Origin: an uncultured Sphingorhabdus sp.
GTDB taxonomy: Bacteria; Pseudomonadota; Alphaproteobacteria; Sphingomonadales; Sphingomonadaceae
Direction of reading: 5' to 3'
DNA: 64,000 nucleotides
Assembly (NCBI RefSeq): GCF_937872355.1
Contig: NZ_CALMSV010000096.1
Span: 25,404 to 89,403, forward strand
The position numbers and the translations under genes were made by a program. Below are positions 39,159-45,509 of this stretch, one piece after another; the first letter of the stretch is position 1, and the number at the start of each line of letters is the position of its first letter. The notes beneath the pieces were generated by a model. It was not told the DNA's origin, ran no database searches, and saw nothing but the letters and a program-made list of their open reading frames with translations.

Positions 39159-39176
39159 GTAGATAAGTCGTAAATA

Positions 39177-40541
39177 TTAGGCGATTGGCAGGTTGAGCGT
39201 GAAGCGCGCGCCGCCTGCCGATCCGGTTTCGATTGACAGTTCGCCCCCCATCGCTCTTGCGAGTTTGCGGGAAATATAAAGACCCAGCCCGCTCCCGCCA
39301 TCTCCAGAGCGTCCAAGCCGTTCAAATTTGGTGAAAACGCGTTCGCGATCTTCCTCCGGAATTCCAGGTCCCTCATCTTCAACCGATATTGTTGCTGCAG
39401 TGGGATTGATAATGATCTGGATCCGAGTGCCGCCTGGTGAATAACGAATAGCATTACCGACCAGATTGAGAACGATCTGCAACACTCGTCTGAATTCCCC
39501 CACGACAACACATTTTATGTCCTCATCCGGGGAAATCAGCGTAATCTGATGGTCAGCCGCCTTCAGTGCAAGCAAACCCGAAACACGGCGAGCTATGTCA
39601 CCAAGTTCGACAGGTTCACGCGCGACCTTGAACTCGGGTCTGTCGATCGCATCAAGATCCTCCAGATCGCCTACCAGTTCAGACAGGTGCTTTGCGGCTG
39701 ACGCTATGTCCTTCGCATAGCTGGAATATTGCTCCAATATCGGTCCGTTCAATTCCGACCCGATAGTTTCAGCATTGGCCAATATGCGGCCCAGCGGCTG
39801 GCGAACGGCATTTGCGAAGTGTCGGCCAAGCCCCATTCCGGCATTCGCATGCTTCTCTTCTGCATTGGTACCACTTCCAACCGTTGGCAGCGCTTCTGGA
39901 AACAAGAATACCAGATGCACTCCAACCACAGGTTCGGTATCCGACTTTTTTAGATCTACCAGTGCCGTCAGTTCCACGTCTGTGGAACGATTCCTGACCC
40001 GCACTCGTTCGGGAATATCACCTGGCGCTCTCAGAAGCGCCTCAAATCCCGCCGGATGATCAATCAGATCGAAATGTTCGTCGAACGCATAAGCAACGAA
40101 TTCATTCCCGAAATTTTCGAGCAAAGCTCTGGACGCGCTCAAAACGACCCCAGAACGACTGATTTGCATGGACTGCGGTGCGTTGCGAACGACATGTTGC
40201 CCAGCGCGAGTCCTGAAGGGCGACGCAGACAGAACTGCCGTGCCTCGCTCCTGCCACCCGATAATAGAAAGATGGACATTCCGGTCCTTCTTTTCAGCTT
40301 CGACCCATAATTCGATATCATGGTCTTTATCGGCTGCGTAAACATACCGTTCGAACCGCAAACCCGTTTGACAACACAGATTCGCCAAATCCAGCAAACC
40401 AGGAACGGCTATTACGCCTCCATCACGACCACCATTTGAAGCGTGCAGCCTGCGTATCGCGACGTCGGCCGCGATTAAACGGCCCTCTTGGTCGACAACA
40501 CATTTAATTGGCAACGCGAGCCGTGCTGGCAGATTCTGCAT
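39177..40541 (-). CDS. PleC/DivJ-like sensor histidine kinase lacking the phospho-His (pseudokinase)
   Basis: H-box position reads FANAVRQPL; HATPase N (LNLVGNAIRYS), G1 (DEGPGI) and G2 (GSGLGL) intact; PAS-like N-terminus. Confidence 0.8.
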   Translation of the reverse strand: MQNLPARLALPIKCVVDQEGRLIAADVAIRRLHASNGGRDGGVIAVPGLLDLANLCCQTGLRFERYVYAADKDHDIELWVEAEKKDRNVHLSIIGWQERGTAVLSASPFRTRAGQHVVRNAPQSMQISRSGVVLSASRALLENFGNEFVAYAFDEHFDLIDHPAGFEALLRAPGDIPERVRVRNRSTDVELTALVDLKKSDTEPVVGVHLVFLFPEALPTVGSGTNAEEKHANAGMGLGRHFANAVRQPLGRILANAETIGSELNGPILEQYSSYAKDIASAAKHLSELVGDLEDLDAIDRPEFKVAREPVELGDIARRVSGLLALKAADHQITLISPDEDIKCVVVGEFRRVLQIVLNLVGNAIRYSPGGTRIQIIINPTAATISVEDEGPGIPEEDRERVFTKFERLGRSGDGGSGLGLYISRKLARAMGGELSIETGSAGGARFTLNLPIA

Positions 40542-41437
40542 CAGCCGGCCCTCGCAGTCGCTTCAGCGCCAAGCCGCCACTGCAATACCGTCGAACGCGC
40601 CTGATCTACATTTACGGATTCAAATTGTTCGAGCGATAAGGCAAGGCGATAGTCATCGCCGCGATCACCACGCAAATATTGTAAAATAGACAGTGCAGAT
40701 TTCGGATCGCTGCCACGCGCTCGTAGCAGCGTCAAAAAGGGTGCCACGGGGCCTTCATCAATAAAACGCAATATCCGCTCATGTGTAATCCGGAACTCCT
40801 GAGCTAACCCGCTGACATATAGCGAAAGTCCAGCACTTATAGGATCGTTCAAGCCCGGCCGAACTTCATCGGGCAGAAAATAAGCGAGCTTTGCCGCAGC
40901 AGCGCTCAATGTCCGCGATTCATCATGTGCAGCCAGGAACAGGTTGCCAGCTTTGATATAGTCGCGACGCTCACCAATCGATCCGGACTGGAACACTGCT
41001 ACCACACGCCAGAGTAAAAGATGCAGTAATTCAGCTGGCATCTGACTGGTAAGATTTTCTGGTGTTCGCCACTCAATCGCACTTTCTGCGACCAACAGAT
41101 TGCGGGCAGATTGCGCAAGCATCGCATCCTTGCTGTCTATCATCTGTGCTGCAATCTGACCGAATTTATCTGGTCTGCCTTCATTAACTCGGCGCGAAAT
41201 CTGCTCTTCTGCAATGCGTGCAAGAGCGAACTCAATAAGCGATTGCTCGCGAAGCAAACCTGATCGACACAGAATGTCCCAGCTTTTTGGGAGGACTTCT
41301 GCTTGCTCGATACCTAGCCCTCTTTCAATACCTTGCACCAGCATTTGCAGTACCAATCGGACAGATGCCTGCATGGCTTCACTTGGTGCATTCTGGACGC
41401 GCGGAAACAGCAGCTGGGCGAGGTCGTCGCACAGCAT
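40541..41437 (-). CDS. All-helical hypothetical protein, DUF2336-like
   Basis: 298-aa ORF coupled to the kinase (TGATG); DUF2336 resemblance by eye only; frame stays open upstream to about 41545. Confidence 0.55.
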   Translation of the reverse strand: MLCDDLAQLLFPRVQNAPSEAMQASVRLVLQMLVQGIERGLGIEQAEVLPKSWDILCRSGLLREQSLIEFALARIAEEQISRRVNEGRPDKFGQIAAQMIDSKDAMLAQSARNLLVAESAIEWRTPENLTSQMPAELLHLLLWRVVAVFQSGSIGERRDYIKAGNLFLAAHDESRTLSAAAAKLAYFLPDEVRPGLNDPISAGLSLYVSGLAQEFRITHERILRFIDEGPVAPFLTLLRARGSDPKSALSILQYLRGDRGDDYRLALSLEQFESVNVDQARSTVLQWRLGAEATARAG

Positions 41438-41551: not shown

Positions 41552-41566
41552 TTAATTTGAATTTAA
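41552..41566. promoter_or_regulatory. CtrA full binding site
   Basis: TTAA-TTTGAAT-TTAA(C); reads TTAA-N7-TTAAC on both strands. Confidence 0.7.
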
Positions 41567-42760
41567 CTGTCCGAGATTTCGCATCTGACCCCAGCGAGCC
41601 CCGATATTCAGCCCGAGGAGAATGACGATGACGCTCTTCGCGACAAGCGAAAGAGGAAATAGAAACAAACCGATAAGCAGCGATAAAGTGACTGCCAATG
41701 GCGAAATAGTACGAAGCGTCCTGTCCTTTGGTGACATATGTGACATCAGGACCAGCGCCACTAATAGGGTTGTGAGAAACGACATGTCGACAAGCGACTC
41801 CCCGCTGCGCCAAAATGACGCCAGCAAAGTCGCCGTACCTGCAAACTGGATTGCCCAACTCAAATAATCATTGGCTTTTACATGATATTCAATGGCCCGT
41901 AATTGTTGCCTGAGTGTTTCCAGGCAAAGAGCCAGAACGTAAACGGCTAAAGCCGCCATGATATGGCCACCATAAGCGACTGCCACCGAAGCGATAGAAA
42001 CAACCACTGGTGCCCAGCCAAAAGCCGCCATCAAGGCAGGTCTCTGCGACACCGGTGCAATAAGTCCGCCAGACAGATTGGCAACGACAGCTTCCATCGT
42101 TCCAGATTGCCGGAACTCCAAAAAATGAGATCCAATTATCTTTTCGTAATCACCGGTACTGGAAACGTGCAGCAGCGAGCCATCAGTGATCCTTTGTTGA
42201 CTGATAGCGACTTCCGAAGCGCCTAACTGCAAGGAATGACGGAGCAGAAAAGACGCTAGGCTCCAGCCTTCTGGCATTTCCTTGGATTGAAGCAGGATAC
42301 CGGCTTCGAGAACCGCGACCCCGGACCAGCGACGATTCAAATCAATACGTTCAAACAAGCCGTTGGCAGGCCCTTCCTCAACAGTGCCGACACTGTTCGC
42401 TTTCCAAGACAACACCTCCTGCAACAGGCCGTCATCGAGCCATAATTCTGGCGCAACCAACAAAAATGGCCCGTCGAAATAATCTGCCTCGGAAAAATTC
42501 ACCGGGCGCAGCAAACGGACATTGCCACCTTCTGCCCGCATCTGTTCGACTAGCTGCGGTAGCTCGCCGGGGATGGCGTCGACCGCGATGATGATATCAT
42601 CGACGCCAAGCCGCTGCAGTTGTTTGACTTGATGGAATATCGCGGGTTTGCCGAATATTTTCGGCAACATCGCTGGCGCTCCGAAATTATCGAGCGGAGT
42701 TTCGACGCAGATCACTGCGCAATGGATGTTCAAATTATGGTCCGACGGCAAGTTGGGCAT
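41552..42760 (-). CDS. Hypothetical protein: degenerate nucleotidyltransferase-like N-domain plus C-terminal TM bundle
   Basis: MLPKIFGKPAIFHQVKQLQRLGVDDIIIAVD resembles the NTP_transferase start; about 6 hydrophobic helices at C-terminus; start 42760 or 42808. Confidence 0.6.
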   Translation of the reverse strand: MPNLPSDHNLNIHCAVICVETPLDNFGAPAMLPKIFGKPAIFHQVKQLQRLGVDDIIIAVDAIPGELPQLVEQMRAEGGNVRLLRPVNFSEADYFDGPFLLVAPELWLDDGLLQEVLSWKANSVGTVEEGPANGLFERIDLNRRWSGVAVLEAGILLQSKEMPEGWSLASFLLRHSLQLGASEVAISQQRITDGSLLHVSSTGDYEKIIGSHFLEFRQSGTMEAVVANLSGGLIAPVSQRPALMAAFGWAPVVVSIASVAVAYGGHIMAALAVYVLALCLETLRQQLRAIEYHVKANDYLSWAIQFAGTATLLASFWRSGESLVDMSFLTTLLVALVLMSHMSPKDRTLRTISPLAVTLSLLIGLFLFPLSLVAKSVIVILLGLNIGARWGQMRNLGQLNSN

Positions 42761-42838
42761 TGATCCGCTATGCCGACAGCCAGAAAATTGCCAAGCGCTT
42801 TCTGGCAATCAGGCCCGCAGCACGTTCAGACTTTGGGA

Positions 42839-43144
42839 TTAAATCCCTTGTTCGATTTGGCTAACCAGGGTCACAAGTTTTCGGACAACTACAGGATCAC
42901 CTGGCGCACCCAAATTCGCCTCATCCGCCAGATACATCATTTCCGTTGCACCGAAACTGGCCGCAAGTCCCTTGAGGCGAAAACAGCAATATTGCCAGTT
43001 CGCATCGCAGCGAGACCTTCCAAGAAGGTCGATCTGGCGCTTTGCACTATCCAAAAACGCAAGACGCAGCTCCGCCATCAGCGCGGCATCATCGCCTGCA
43101 GCCGCGCTCAAAGATGTGTCAAATGCGCCATAGTCCATTGCCAT
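42839..43144 (-). CDS. Hpt-domain-like protein lacking the phospho-His
   Basis: About 100 aa helical; CCFRLKGLAASFGA aligns to Hpt AHxLKGxAxxFGA. Confidence 0.7.
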   Translation of the reverse strand: MAMDYGAFDTSLSAAAGDDAALMAELRLAFLDSAKRQIDLLGRSRCDANWQYCCFRLKGLAASFGATEMMYLADEANLGAPGDPVVVRKLVTLVSQIEQGI

Positions 43145-43154
43145 AATGCAATAT

Positions 43155-43173
43155 TTATCCACAGGCAGGTTAA
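43155..43173. promoter_or_regulatory. DnaA box plus CtrA half-site in divergent promoter
   Basis: TTATCCACA at 43155-43163; GGTTAA (TTAACC on minus strand) at 43168-43173. Confidence 0.5.
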
Positions 43174-43205
43174 CTTTGCGTTTCAACACTCCTAAATTGT
43201 GGTAA

Positions 43206-45509
43206 ATGTGTCCCATGACGGCACAATCCAAGATAGTCGAAATCGGCCGCTCGCAGAGCGATTCCAGCCCTTCCGAATACGTTGTTGAGGAACAGGTGGA
43301 AGTTCAGCAAGAGTTTGCTGACGCCCCAGCCTCTGAGGAATATCTGGAAAGTGAGTGGCATGATGTCGTCGAATCAGGTCGGCCGTGGGGCAAAATTCTG
43401 CTTCTGATAGCCCTGATTTCTGCGACTTTGGGTTGGACCGGTTTTTTCATTTGGGCGCATCTGCCGGAACTGATTGTTGTCCCTGACCCTGCTCGGATTA
43501 GTGAACTAATCGTCCAATGGTCGGCTCCTGTTGCTGTGATCGGTCTTTTGTGGCTGCTATCGATGCGCATGAGTTCAACCGAGGCGAAACGCTTCGGCGA
43601 TGTTGCAGCACTGTTGAGATCCGAAAGCGATGCGTTGCAGAACCGCATGCGCAATGTGAACGGCGAAATCGCGCTAGCGCGATCCTTTCTGGCAGAGAAC
43701 GCCAAGGAATTGGAAGCTATAGGTCGCCTATCCGCACAAAGGCTGACAGAAGCAGCAACTCAGTTGAGCGCTGCTTTAACTGATTCCGACGAACGGGCCA
43801 AAATGCTGCAGGTTGCGAGCAATGCCGCTGTGACGAACCTGGAGCAATTGCGGAACCATTTACCGGTCGTGACCAGCGCAGCCAAGGATGCGACGAACCA
43901 AATAGGCATTGCGGGCAACACGGCGCACAGCCAGATTCAGGCAATCATCGGTGTCCTAAAAACCATGGATGAAAGCGCTGCAAACGCCAATATTTCGCTA
44001 GAGGCGCTTGATACTCGCATCAGTGCCAGCACCTCGGCGCTAAACCAAAAACTTTCGGCTGCAAGCGCCGATCTTTCTCAATCGGTTGAACAATCCGGAA
44101 AATTGGCTGACGATATGCTCACTGCGCTTTCGTCAGGTGTTACCGAGGCGGAGCAGCGCCTGATTGAAACTGCGAACCAGCTCGATGACCGAATGGCGGC
44201 AAGCCACCAACGTCTGGAAGGCAATTTGGGCAGTCTGGGAGAAGCCATCGCTCATCTCGAAGCGGTGAGCGACGCGCAAGATTCGACAAGCAAAGCCCTG
44301 CTCGCGAGAGTGAAGGAATCGATCGCCGAAAGCAGAAATGAGCTTTCGAAATTTGGTGATGAAGCAAGCGACAGCATCGCCAAACTGGCGTTCAGCGTTT
44401 CGGCGCTTAATGAGCGCAGCGAGGAACTGGACGGCCGTCTAAAAGGTACGTTGGCGCAAACCGATGCGCTGATCGAGCAAGCCGGCGCGATGCGTTCTGA
44501 TCTGGAAGCCATCGCTGACGAAACCACCGAAAGGCTGGTTTCAAAACTCGACAATGTTAACGCTATGTTCGTAGACGTGCGAACAGCGTTTTCCGCAGCC
44601 AATAACGAACTTGCAATCGCTGACGAAGGAACAGGGGCGCTCGTAAGATCGGTGCAGGAACTTGAACAGCTCGTATCGACGCAACGCTCTGCCCTCGCCA
44701 GCCTCAATGAAAGCTCTTCAGAATATCTGACCGCGCAGCACGAACAGGTCGATATATTGTCGGCAGCGATTGTTCATACGCGAACTGCGCTTGAAGAGCT
44801 GTCGGGCATCGCCAATGAGCAGCTTGTCGCGTCACTATTGCGCGTTCGCGAAACCACCAAGCAAGCAGCAGAGGCGAGCCGCAAGATTGTCGACGAAGAA
44901 CTTTCGGTGGTCGCCGACAAGCTGAACGAGAGAAATCGCGTTGCGATTGAAACGGCCGTCGATGAACAGGTGAAGGCGCTCGACGTGGCTATGCGCGAAG
45001 CATTTGGTCGCAATCTGACACTCGCTGCAGACGTTGAGGAACGGATCGAGGCGCAGCTCAAACTAGTTGGCGAGATGGCGACAAATCTTGAGCAGCGAGT
45101 CAACGAAGCGCATTCGTCCTTTGCTGGAATTGACGACGAAGGTTTTGCACGTCGTATGGCGCTGTTGACCGAATCCTTGAATTCTGCAGCGATCGATGTT
45201 GCCAAGATTTTGTCGAATGAGGTGACCGATACCGCTTGGGCTGCTTATTTGAAGGGCGACCGTGGCGTGTTCACACGCCGTGCAGTCCGCCTGCTTGACA
45301 GCGGCGAAGCGAAAATTATCGCTGCGCATTACGACGACGACGCCGAGTTCCGCGAACATGTAAACCGCTACATTCACGATTTTGAATCGATGATGCGCGT
45401 TCTGCTCAGCACCCGGGATGGCAACGCCATCGGCGTTACGTTGCTTTCATCGGATGTCGGCAAACTCTATGTCGCGCTTGCTCAGGCAATTGAGCGCTTG
45501 CGCGGCTAG
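43206..45509 (+). CDS. Membrane-anchored coiled-coil protein, TipN-like polar landmark candidate
   Basis: Acidic N-terminus, two TMs, about 550-aa heptad/apolipoprotein-like region, C-terminal EFREHVNRYIHDFE...LLSSDVGKLY motif. Confidence 0.65.
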   Translation: MCPMTAQSKIVEIGRSQSDSSPSEYVVEEQVEVQQEFADAPASEEYLESEWHDVVESGRPWGKILLLIALISATLGWTGFFIWAHLPELIVVPDPARISELIVQWSAPVAVIGLLWLLSMRMSSTEAKRFGDVAALLRSESDALQNRMRNVNGEIALARSFLAENAKELEAIGRLSAQRLTEAATQLSAALTDSDERAKMLQVASNAAVTNLEQLRNHLPVVTSAAKDATNQIGIAGNTAHSQIQAIIGVLKTMDESAANANISLEALDTRISASTSALNQKLSAASADLSQSVEQSGKLADDMLTALSSGVTEAEQRLIETANQLDDRMAASHQRLEGNLGSLGEAIAHLEAVSDAQDSTSKALLARVKESIAESRNELSKFGDEASDSIAKLAFSVSALNERSEELDGRLKGTLAQTDALIEQAGAMRSDLEAIADETTERLVSKLDNVNAMFVDVRTAFSAANNELAIADEGTGALVRSVQELEQLVSTQRSALASLNESSSEYLTAQHEQVDILSAAIVHTRTALEELSGIANEQLVASLLRVRETTKQAAEASRKIVDEELSVVADKLNERNRVAIETAVDEQVKALDVAMREAFGRNLTLAADVEERIEAQLKLVGEMATNLEQRVNEAHSSFAGIDDEGFARRMALLTESLNSAAIDVAKILSNEVTDTAWAAYLKGDRGVFTRRAVRLLDSGEAKIIAAHYDDDAEFREHVNRYIHDFESMMRVLLSTRDGNAIGVTLLSSDVGKLYVALAQAIERLRG

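Follow-up and report, generated by a model that had tools for sequence, protein, structure and literature searches.

A conserved sphingomonad kinase homologue that lacks the phospho-accepting histidine and lies beside a DUF2336 gene is probably a pseudo-histidine kinase

A kinase-like gene in the window, the whole 64,000-nucleotide stretch of DNA analysed here, raises the question of what role a histidine kinase can have when the histidine that should receive the phosphate is missing. The gene (39177 to 40541, minus strand) is an open reading frame for a soluble protein of 454 amino acids with the domain order PAS-like, PAS, DHp, and CA. Its identification as a pseudo-histidine kinase gene draws on this frame, on Pfam matches to HATPase_c (8.5e-29) and, below threshold, to HisKA, on an AlphaFold2 model with a mean pLDDT of 79.8, and on Foldseek matches of that model to WalK, NifL, YF1, VicK, and HK853, with DivL (4q20) also among the fold matches. 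The N-terminal PAS-like domain (residues 5–100; 40242 to 40529, minus strand) was modelled with a strand/helix PAS-like topology at a pLDDT of about 89–97 and is family-specific, profile A3 matching this region only in the window's own GTDB family. The second PAS domain (residues 122–214; 39900 to 40178, minus strand; pLDDT 86–95) is of a generic cytoplasmic type, and the corresponding profile segment, about 95–215, matches repeated PAS units of multi-PAS proteins throughout the class. These domains are followed by a DHp helical hairpin without a phospho-acceptor (residues 238–299; 39645 to 39830, minus strand), with model helices at 238–265 and 270–299, and by the CA domain.

A preliminary description of the locus had placed an Asn at the position of the phospho-accepting His, and this placement is borne out by three alignments, all of which put Asn244 there and not His241. 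The Asn codon, AAT, was confirmed by direct reading at 39810 to 39812 on the minus strand. The Pfam HisKA match, which at 22.1 bits falls below the cut-off of 26.9, pairs residues 246–300 with profile positions 13–64 only, which leaves the H-box of the profile unmatched; taking the phospho-His of the HisKA consensus to be profile position 11, and with V246 at position 13, N244 falls at the acceptor position. In a phmmer alignment to HK853 (3dge), 'fanavrqpl' pairs gap-free with 'ISHELRTPL', and in a MAFFT alignment with ten canonical kinases GRHFANAVRQPL pairs gap-free with LAAMSHELRTPL.

Comparison with orthologs indicated that the loss of the His is a property of the whole family, and thus that the Asn244 observation is not due to chance. 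Among 72 species-level orthologs, the acceptor (H) position is occupied by P (42), R (11), K (5), S (3), Q (3), N (2), T (2), A (2), D (1), and G (1), with neither His nor Tyr in any of them, and 119 closer orthologs have S (72), P (32), T (11), N (3), and A (1), again with no His. The only His among 84 representatives at 50% identity comes from a garbled row, one of two that appear to be frame-shifted; for this set the residue was taken from the alignment, an H-box regular expression having missed more than half. Given this free variation in both ortholog sets, the notion of a defined replacement of His by Asn was abandoned: Asn is a local state, found only in the nearest relatives of the window protein, and has no significance as a novel type of substitution at the acceptor site. 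The neighbouring catalytic positions have also changed in the 72 orthologs. At H+1, the catalytic Glu of canonical kinases, A (42), V (26), and S (4) occur, and at H+4, the phosphatase Thr/Asn, Q (52), A (6), and G (6) along with other residues. The family, therefore, has none of the acceptor His, the H+1 acid, and the H+4 Thr/Asn of canonical HisKA-type kinases, while the HATPase_c boxes are present. What is conserved in the DHp across the order (72 orthologs) is the motif 'lr.P..rIiANA..I', which forms a near-invariant surface on helix 1, PLxRIIANAETI, together with H285, the counterpart of the ancestral 'HLL' in helix 2 of related active kinases.

A His does lie three residues upstream of Asn244 in the window genome and its nearest relatives, in the sequence GRHF as previously noted (His241, codon CAC, 39819 to 39821, minus strand), and it had been proposed as an alternative acceptor, which would mean that the protein is an ordinary kinase whose H-box has shifted. 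The orthologs speak strongly against this. His is found at this position in only 7 of 72 species, which otherwise have mainly R (22), D (19), and Q (14), and among close orthologs the counts are H (40) and Q (77). In addition, His241 pairs gap-free with H-3 of the canonical kinases in the MAFFT alignment, so that the GRHF His, whose possible alignment at the canonical site had been raised as a point on which the claim would turn, does not occupy that site. Since it is so seldom kept and aligns to H-3, His241 is not an alternative acceptor, and with the catalytic Glu and Thr also lost, a shifted-acceptor kinase can be regarded as extremely improbable. The invariant His285 was likewise ruled out as a relocated acceptor, as the same helix-2 His is found in related active kinases and in HK853, and a Ser/Thr acceptor at the H position was ruled out by the Pro, Arg, or Lys present there in most species.

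The distribution of the family was determined across the GTDB family to which the window belongs; judging by the named loci, this GTDB family covers the sphingomonads. Of the 251 genomes searched at E <= 1e-25, 183 encode the pseudokinase, nearly always in one copy and free of internal stops, and these represent 86 of the 112 genera; at that threshold it was not detected in the remaining 68 genomes, which may reflect either real loss or divergence. It was found in no other alphaproteobacterial family sampled, and among 301 genomes of the class a full match to the family-specific N-terminal region was confined to the same GTDB family. Relatives are encoded on at least 559 genome contigs, and the 80 of these that were listed belong to sphingomonad taxa except for three MAGs whose names go no further than class or phylum. 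The retention of the fold and of open frames, the order-wide loss of the acceptor, and the many invariant residues are together what is expected of a pseudo-histidine kinase. A literature search found no published description of this family, and the search for 'pseudo-histidine kinase' with Sphingomonas returned only unrelated papers.

The ATP-binding domain presents the opposite picture to the H-box. The CA (HATPase_c) domain (39192 to 39617, minus strand; Pfam match at residues 351–453) has intact N, G1, F, and G2 boxes, in agreement with the earlier reading, and the HATPase_c E-value of 8.5e-29 is accompanied by box residues (N359, N363, D389, G391, G393, F403, G416, G418, and G420) that are invariant in 72/72 orthologs. 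The ATP lid is four residues shorter than in related active kinases in the MAFFT alignment, and its sequence, KFERLGRSGDGGSGLGL, is unusually conserved in the family. Conservation of this kind could mean that catalysis is retained and not binding alone, and it is the main evidence for the most serious alternative, in which the protein is still a phosphotransferase whose CA domain phosphorylates something other than its own H-box His, either Ser/Thr/Tyr on another protein or the His of a partner kinase in a heterodimer. GHKL-type protein kinases that act on other targets, such as SpoIIAB and BCKDK, do exist, the invariant ATP site and conserved lid are more than simple scaffolds usually keep, and the conserved DHp surface would suit substrate docking. 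However, there is no conserved Ser/Thr/Tyr/His near the H site, where Pro or Arg is frequent at residue 244 and T259 is variously T, S, A, D, or N, the H+1 catalytic acid is gone, and no canonical paralogue of this kinase type that could form a heterodimer was seen in the kinase inventory of the genome. NifL also sets a precedent for nucleotide binding without transfer. We therefore consider continued phosphotransfer unlikely, though deserving of more weight than the other rival explanations.

The pseudokinase is the downstream, co-oriented member of a gene pair. The upstream partner gene (40541 to 41437, minus strand) encodes a diverged, all-helical DUF2336 (PF10098) protein, assigned through its positional orthologs and an AlphaFold2 model, and its stop codon overlaps the pseudokinase start by 1 nt (TGATG). 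A Pfam search with the window copy gave no match, while its positional orthologs match PF10098 with values of up to 3.6e-25. The model of the partner (pLDDT 89.7, pTM 0.87) is helical throughout, and a fold search against the PDB returned nothing significant (best E 0.56). Both the synteny and the 1-nt overlap of the pair are conserved. About half of the alphaproteobacterial genomes that were sampled encode DUF2336 proteins, which are almost unstudied, and a literature search for 'DUF2336' found nothing on the biology of DUF2336 with kinases. We assume that one characterized protein, SpmY, belongs to this group. SpmY has been described as having 'phosphatase-stimulating activity' on the TacA pathway (PMC11519897). 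On that assumption it would serve as a precedent for the pair described here. For SpbR (CC2323, 44 kDa), the literature texts yielded no tie to DUF2336.

Upstream of the pair is a CtrA-type box, TTAATTTGAATTTAA (41552 to 41566, no strand assigned), which is the sole exact TTAA-N7-TTAA in the 64-kb window. Among 69 mutually related sphingomonad loci, 64 have such a box with at most one mismatch at −120 to +10 of the DUF2336 ORF start, compared to a background rate of 0.9% per window; the binomial tail calculated from these counts takes no account of how closely the loci are related. A CtrA ortholog is encoded in the same genome. Expression of the pair is thus probably CtrA-dependent, with the box itself identified as a consensus match only.

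The likely origin of the family was indicated by its closest outside relatives, which are canonical PAS kinases (FLAxMSHELRTPLNAIIGF) of other alphaproteobacteria whose genes closely follow a DUF2336 gene. At 10 non-sphingomonad loci, from 9 genomes, the gene directly after DUF2336 encodes a canonical PAS kinase. The best match of the pseudokinase core was the DUF2336-adjacent kinase in six of eight genomes and another kinase in two, each of these genomes containing 4–29 kinase-core matches at E <= 1e-15, and the best matches of the sphingomonad DUF2336 proteins were likewise the kinase-adjacent copies, the match between the DUF2336 partners being best in both directions. In a maximum-likelihood tree, the pseudokinases form one group (100/100) on a stem of 1.74 substitutions per site and fall on one side of a branch that also holds six of the ten DUF2336-linked kinases; the support there is 66/95, with 66 a weak bootstrap value, and the backbone is a polytomy. 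The uncharacterised DUF2336-linked kinases, 420–720 aa in length with different N-termini, resemble the pseudokinases in the DUF2336-to-kinase gene order, often with overlap, in a common loop/helix-2 motif, GP(I/L)..Y..Y..DI..A..HL, and in CtrA-like boxes upstream, as in the sphingomonad pair. Unlike the pseudokinases, they retain the His, Glu, and Thr and have a longer ATP lid, whereas the pseudokinase family has lost the DHp catalytic residues and gained its own N-terminal PAS-like domain.

The long stem and the loss of all three DHp catalytic residues might also be expected of a functionless kinase gene in decay. A relic of this kind would hardly be carried as a full-length, stop-free frame, nearly always in one copy, by so many genomes (183 of 251) and genera (86 of 112), with dozens of invariant positions that include the whole ATP site and with synteny, gene overlap, and upstream box all conserved, and we give this explanation almost no credence.

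The relationship to known alphaproteobacterial kinases was also examined. Assignment to the PleC/DivJ family, as first suggested, holds in part: the DHp does resemble the 'SHELRTPLNAIIGF ... HLLxLINDILD' type, which we take to include PleC, DivJ, and PdhS, but membership of PleC/DivJ proper was not upheld. The NCBIfam DivJ model (NF050805) scored 77.1 bits over residues 237–453 against a cut-off of 1000 and ranked below the generic TorS, PnpS, and RstB models, and PdhS was not among the best 25 NCBIfam models. The family shares with PleC/DivJ/PdhS a broad subtype, seen in the helix-2 pattern 'HL..L..D..D' and the CA boxes, and differs from them in the missing H-box.

A closer parallel is DivL of Caulobacter crescentus (4q20), which reads DivK~P to control CckA, and the question arises whether the pseudokinase is the sphingomonad DivL drifted from Tyr. 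The two are PAS-containing HisKA/HATPase_c proteins of alphaproteobacteria that lack a phospho-His and have a CtrA-linked context, 4q20 appears among both the sequence and the fold matches, and both likely act by binding rather than by phosphotransfer. DivL, however, is anchored in the membrane, contains multiple PAS domains, and has Tyr at a site that varies freely in the pseudokinase family, and it is the pseudokinase that is paired with DUF2336; the published sphingomonad DivL, Swit_2675, has 798 aa compared to about 450 aa for the soluble pseudokinases. The same genome contains a separate DivL-like ORF with the Tyr, FLSNMSYEFRTPL. In phmmer searches the pseudokinase matched HK853 better than DivL (80 vs 59 bits), in genome G025 the DUF2336-adjacent kinase scored 113 bits against 84 for the DivL-like kinase, and forcing a clade with a DivL-like kinase cost 19.8 lnL (p-AU 0.052). 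DivL identity was ruled out on the separate Tyr ORF, the length, the scores, and the tree test, and drift from a DivL ancestor is a very poor explanation for this family. In overall architecture the protein is also the same as NifL (9qq6), the PAS-PAS-H-GHKL anti-activator of NifA, which ranked third in the fold search. NifL is a non-phosphorylating kinase homologue in which nucleotide binding by the GHKL domain controls binding to its partner, NifA. The window has no NifA-type partner or nif context, and the sequence likeness is limited to the generic kinase core.

The explanation that we favor, and hold to be reasonably probable, is that the protein is a pseudo-histidine kinase without catalytic activity that selection has maintained and that works by binding, together with its DUF2336 partner. 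Given the loss of the acceptor His in the sphingomonad ancestor, the protein probably signals through partner and nucleotide binding and not through transfer of phosphate. At the base of the sphingomonads, an active ancestor would have lost its kinase chemistry, both autophosphorylation and phosphotransfer, along with its phosphatase chemistry, and its inactive descendant would have been retained. This descendant most likely serves as a scaffold or allosteric regulator that is dimeric and binds nucleotide, and perhaps also ligands of its PAS domains. In complex with DUF2336, it would use the conserved DHp surface to bind a further signalling protein, for which a receiver domain and a second kinase from the CtrA-linked network are candidates, in the manner of DivL-DivK~P-CckA and NifL-NifA. 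The cluster has no linked receiver-domain gene, and the choice of binding partner is accordingly a guess. Few pseudo-histidine kinases have been described, and what is known of them comes mostly from single model proteins, DivL and NifL among them. The active DUF2336-linked kinase of many alphaproteobacteria and its apparently dead, strongly conserved sphingomonad descendant offer a natural before-and-after pair, which opens to direct test both the role of a kinase scaffold after loss of phosphotransfer and the role of DUF2336 proteins.

Through its conserved CtrA-type box, the pair becomes a candidate conserved member of the sphingomonad CtrA regulon, which is poorly defined. A bolder reading, which we put forward tentatively and think rather doubtful, is that the pair is a CtrA-controlled hub without His-Asp phosphotransfer, together with an Hpt-like neighbour and a coiled-coil neighbour of 767 aa, and a second, independently evolved DivL-like regulator. 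In such a hub the ATP-binding and PAS domains would read the cellular state, and the DHp surface would capture a receiver domain or kinase of the CckA-ChpT-CtrA network, the pseudokinase having descended from an active kinase still in use in other alphaproteobacteria. Of the two neighbours of the pair, the Hpt-like protein is His-less and the coiled-coil protein is divergently transcribed.

The open frame at 39177-40541 on the minus strand encodes 454 residues, in which Asn244 was read directly from the AAT codon at 39812-39810 and His241, within a GRHF motif, from the CAC codon at 39821-39819. Pfam assigned HATPase_c to residues 351-453 (E 8.5e-29), while HisKA scored 22.1 bits, below the cut-off of 26.9, with its match beginning at V246, profile position 13, and the H-box portion of the profile left unmatched. 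The His of the HisKA consensus is profile position 11, and counting back from V246 places N244 there. A phmmer comparison with solved structures paired the pseudokinase segment 'fanavrqplgri' gap-free with 'ISHELRTPLTAI' of HK853, and the register was identical when MAFFT aligned the protein to ten canonical kinases of alphaproteobacteria; both alignments put Asn244 where the phospho-His would be, and His241 at H-3. The replacement of the phospho-accepting His by Asn, proposed in the preliminary description, is therefore borne out by the codon reading and both alignments, with the HisKA profile also putting the phospho-His position on N244, and the alternative that the GRHF His is the canonical one is not upheld.

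The residue at position 244 varies widely among relatives. A search of a 5.8-billion-protein collection listed 120 matches, almost all of them full-length, with identities of 42-97%; a source name is attached to only a few, and it reads Sphingomonadales or Sphingorhabdus. Position 244 was S72/P32/T11/N3/A1 in 119 full-length orthologs, P42/R11/K5/S3/Q3/N2/T2/A2/D1/G1 in 72 species-level genome loci across the order, and mainly P, R, E, A, T or S in 84 representatives at 50% identity. No genuine member with His at this position was present among these 84, since the single H tallied came from a row that, like one other, is garbled and apparently frame-shifted. The Asn itself is incidental, and loss of the His is a property of the whole family. 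Neighboring catalytic positions have changed as well: among the 72 species, the usual Glu/Asp of H+1 is replaced by A42/V26/S4, and H+4, normally Thr/Asn, is Gln in 52 with scattered other residues elsewhere. The DHp has thus lost the residues on which autophosphorylation, phosphotransfer and phosphatase activity depend. The upstream His241, suggested earlier as an alternative acceptor, cannot be a conserved substitute, as this position is H40/Q77 in the 119 orthologs and R22/D19/Q14/H7, with others, in the 72 species. The sole near-invariant His of the DHp, H285 (69/72), was considered as a relocated acceptor and rejected as an inherited structural residue, because it aligns with the helix-2 'HLL' His also found in related active kinases and HK853.

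The ATP-binding boxes, described as intact from the first reading, are indeed so: N359, N363, D389, G391, G393, F403, G416, G418 and G420 are invariant in 72/72 orthologs. The ATP lid, KFERLGRSGDGGSGLGL, is 4 residues shorter than in related active kinases in the MAFFT alignment, and DHp helix 1 past the dead H-site hardly varies in the 72 orthologs ('lr.P..rIiANA..I'). Strong constraint is evident on both the ATP site and one DHp surface. An AlphaFold2 model (mean pLDDT 79.8, built on 98 sequences) comprises a PAS-like domain (residues 5-100), a second PAS domain (122-214), a helical hairpin corresponding to the DHp (238-299) and a CA domain (309-450), with no apparent transmembrane helix. 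Foldseek searches of the PDB returned the PAS-kinase architectures of a WalK model, the NifL-NifA complex, the LOV kinase YF1 and VicK, and, for the core, HK853, RetS, ZraS, CpxA, ShkA and DivL. The main rival explanation builds on the same invariant boxes, holding that the intact CA domain may still transfer phosphate, to some other target. We propose that the protein would act as a dimeric pseudo-histidine kinase that binds nucleotide and perhaps a PAS ligand as well. Pseudo-histidine kinases are already known as a kind, to which this family adds; no description of the family, or of its descent from a DUF2336-linked active kinase, was found in the literature searched.

Identity with DivL was rejected on several grounds. 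A different ORF, DivL-like and carrying Tyr in its H-box, 'FLSNMSYEFRTPLTSISGY', lies on another contig of the same genome (C245, start ~3820, plus strand); it is at least 663 aa long, and because its H-box is already at residue 590, the frame would hold little or no ATP-binding domain. The sphingomonad DivL ortholog Swit_2675 appears in the supplement to PMC8116508 as an ~800-aa PAS kinase. In G025, an alphaproteobacterial genome outside the sphingomonads, the pseudokinase core scored 84 bits with the DivL-like kinase versus 113 bits with a DUF2336-adjacent kinase, and forcing the pseudokinases into a clade with that DivL-like sequence cost 19.8 log-likelihood units (p-AU 0.052).

When a single genome was scanned for each species, at least 559 contigs encoding a relative were recovered. 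The 80 loci listed came from Sphingorhabdus, Sphingopyxis, Sphingobium, Sphingomonas, Novosphingobium, Erythrobacter, Altererythrobacter and other sphingomonads, except for three MAGs whose names go no further than class or phylum; the window's nearest named relative was Sphingorhabdus buctiana (63% identity for the pseudokinase, 96% for citrate synthase). Across 301 genomes of the class, a profile built from the two N-terminal domains matched full-length only in the GTDB family of the source genome, and elsewhere matched the second, generic PAS domain only. Against 1.84 billion representatives it likewise recovered the family itself and multi-PAS proteins matching the second PAS only. Within the GTDB family, the pseudokinase was found in 183/251 genomes and 86/112 genera (profile, E <= 1e-25), almost always as a single copy and without internal stops.

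Gene order was kept across the 80 listed loci: RNase J comes first, then the divergent gene for a 767-aa coiled-coil protein, an Hpt-like gene, two genes encoding 418 and 298 aa, and the pseudokinase, with convergent citrate synthase, comEC and lexA beyond it. The 298-aa gene (40541-41437, minus strand) and the pseudokinase start share one base in TGATG, and the two genes appear to be coupled. No Pfam domain was matched in the window's 298-aa protein, but DUF2336 (PF10098) is recognized in orthologs at the same position, the best at 3.6e-25. AlphaFold2 predicts a confident all-helical structure (pLDDT 89.7, pTM 0.87), for which a fold search gave no significant PDB neighbor. The pseudokinase and its DUF2336 partner may jointly bind another signalling protein. 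DivL reads DivK~P and thereby controls CckA, and the GHKL domain of NifL controls NifA; the proposed mode resembles both. SpmY is, we assume, a DUF2336 protein; if so, DUF2336 proteins would modulate kinases, and this locus would join such a modulator to a kinase that is dead. SpmY of Caulobacter is credited with 'phosphatase-stimulating activity' on the TacA pathway in PMC11519897.

PF10098 was detected in 63 of the 121 alphaproteobacterial genomes that were sampled, usually with several copies apiece, and in a Caulobacter control genome. Ten loci from nine non-sphingomonad genomes were chosen by crossing PF10098 matches with PAS matches to the N-terminal profile, and in all ten a DUF2336 gene is directly followed by the gene for a kinase of 420-720 aa, whose H-box is the canonical FLAxMSHELRTPLNAIIGF. 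The DUF2336-adjacent kinase was the best match to the pseudokinase core (residues 231-454) in 6/8 genomes, each holding 4-29 kinase-core matches at E <= 1e-15, and none of ten competing kinases examined had a DUF2336 neighbor. Sphingomonad DUF2336 proteins, in turn, best matched kinase-adjacent DUF2336 copies, and the pseudokinases and DUF2336-linked kinases have in common a loop/helix-2 signature, GP(I/L)..Y..Y..DI..A..HL. In a maximum-likelihood tree, built without named PleC, DivJ or CckA sequences, the pseudokinases were monophyletic (100/100) on a long stem of 1.74 substitutions per site and fell with six DUF2336-linked kinases on one side of a branch with 66/95 support, the backbone being unresolved. 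Our reading is that sphingomonads inherited an ancestral DUF2336-kinase pair, the kinase member of which lost catalysis there. Since the kinase inventory of the source genome showed no canonical paralogue of this type and PF10098 had no match in that genome at E <= 1e-10, the data point to decay of a single kinase copy rather than duplication then decay. Separately, at four outgroup loci (L123 in G076, L124 in G001, L125 in G111 and L128 in G043) DUF2336 genes flank a canonical PAS kinase on either side, and genomes carry up to six copies, which suggests that these helical, kinase-associated proteins form a paralogous family.

The sole exact copy in the window of the CtrA-type box TTAA-N7-TTAA (41552-41566) precedes the DUF2336 gene, 115-129 nt before the ATG, and starts on the same base as the 418-aa gene's stop codon. 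Exact copies are very rare (14 in 1.1 Mb of related loci), and 11 of the 14 occupy the equivalent position. With at most one mismatch, the box occurs from -120 to +10 of the DUF2336 ORF start in 64/69 loci against a background expectation of 0.9% per such interval, although these loci are mutually related and the formal p-value is overstated; the box's retention in intergenic DNA across the order is still meaningful. Boxes of this relaxed type also precede all ten outgroup pairs, but the DNA there is AT-richer. A CtrA ortholog was found in the source genome (77% identity over 164 residues, truncated at a contig end), and the pair may reasonably be expected to be transcribed in a CtrA-dependent manner.

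Other members of the cluster were also inspected. The small Hpt-like gene (42839-43231, minus strand; likely true start near 43144) matches Pfam Hpt only at E 0.049 and carries the signature CFRLKGLAASFGA. Its orthologs mostly begin at an internal 'M(A/S)xDYGA' and are ~100 aa long; the Hpt His position in 57 of them is F/Y/W/L/M/A/Q or others and never His, so the protein is His-less family-wide. The conserved 418-aa gene between the Hpt-like and DUF2336 genes (41552-42808, minus strand) encodes a weakly nucleotidyltransferase-like N-terminus (orthologs reach 2e-4 with NTP_transf_3, the window copy ~0.1 with MurU/KdsB) and a hydrophobic C-terminal half; these matches assign it to no family. 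The coiled-coil gene (43206-45509, plus strand), divergent from the cluster and kept in position in 58/80 related loci, has only weak, sub-threshold Pfam matches (ATG17-like, 5e-4). At the other end, citrate synthase (plus strand, end 39158) and the pseudokinase (minus strand, end 39177) converge with 18 nt between their stops (39159-39176), leaving scant room for separate terminators.
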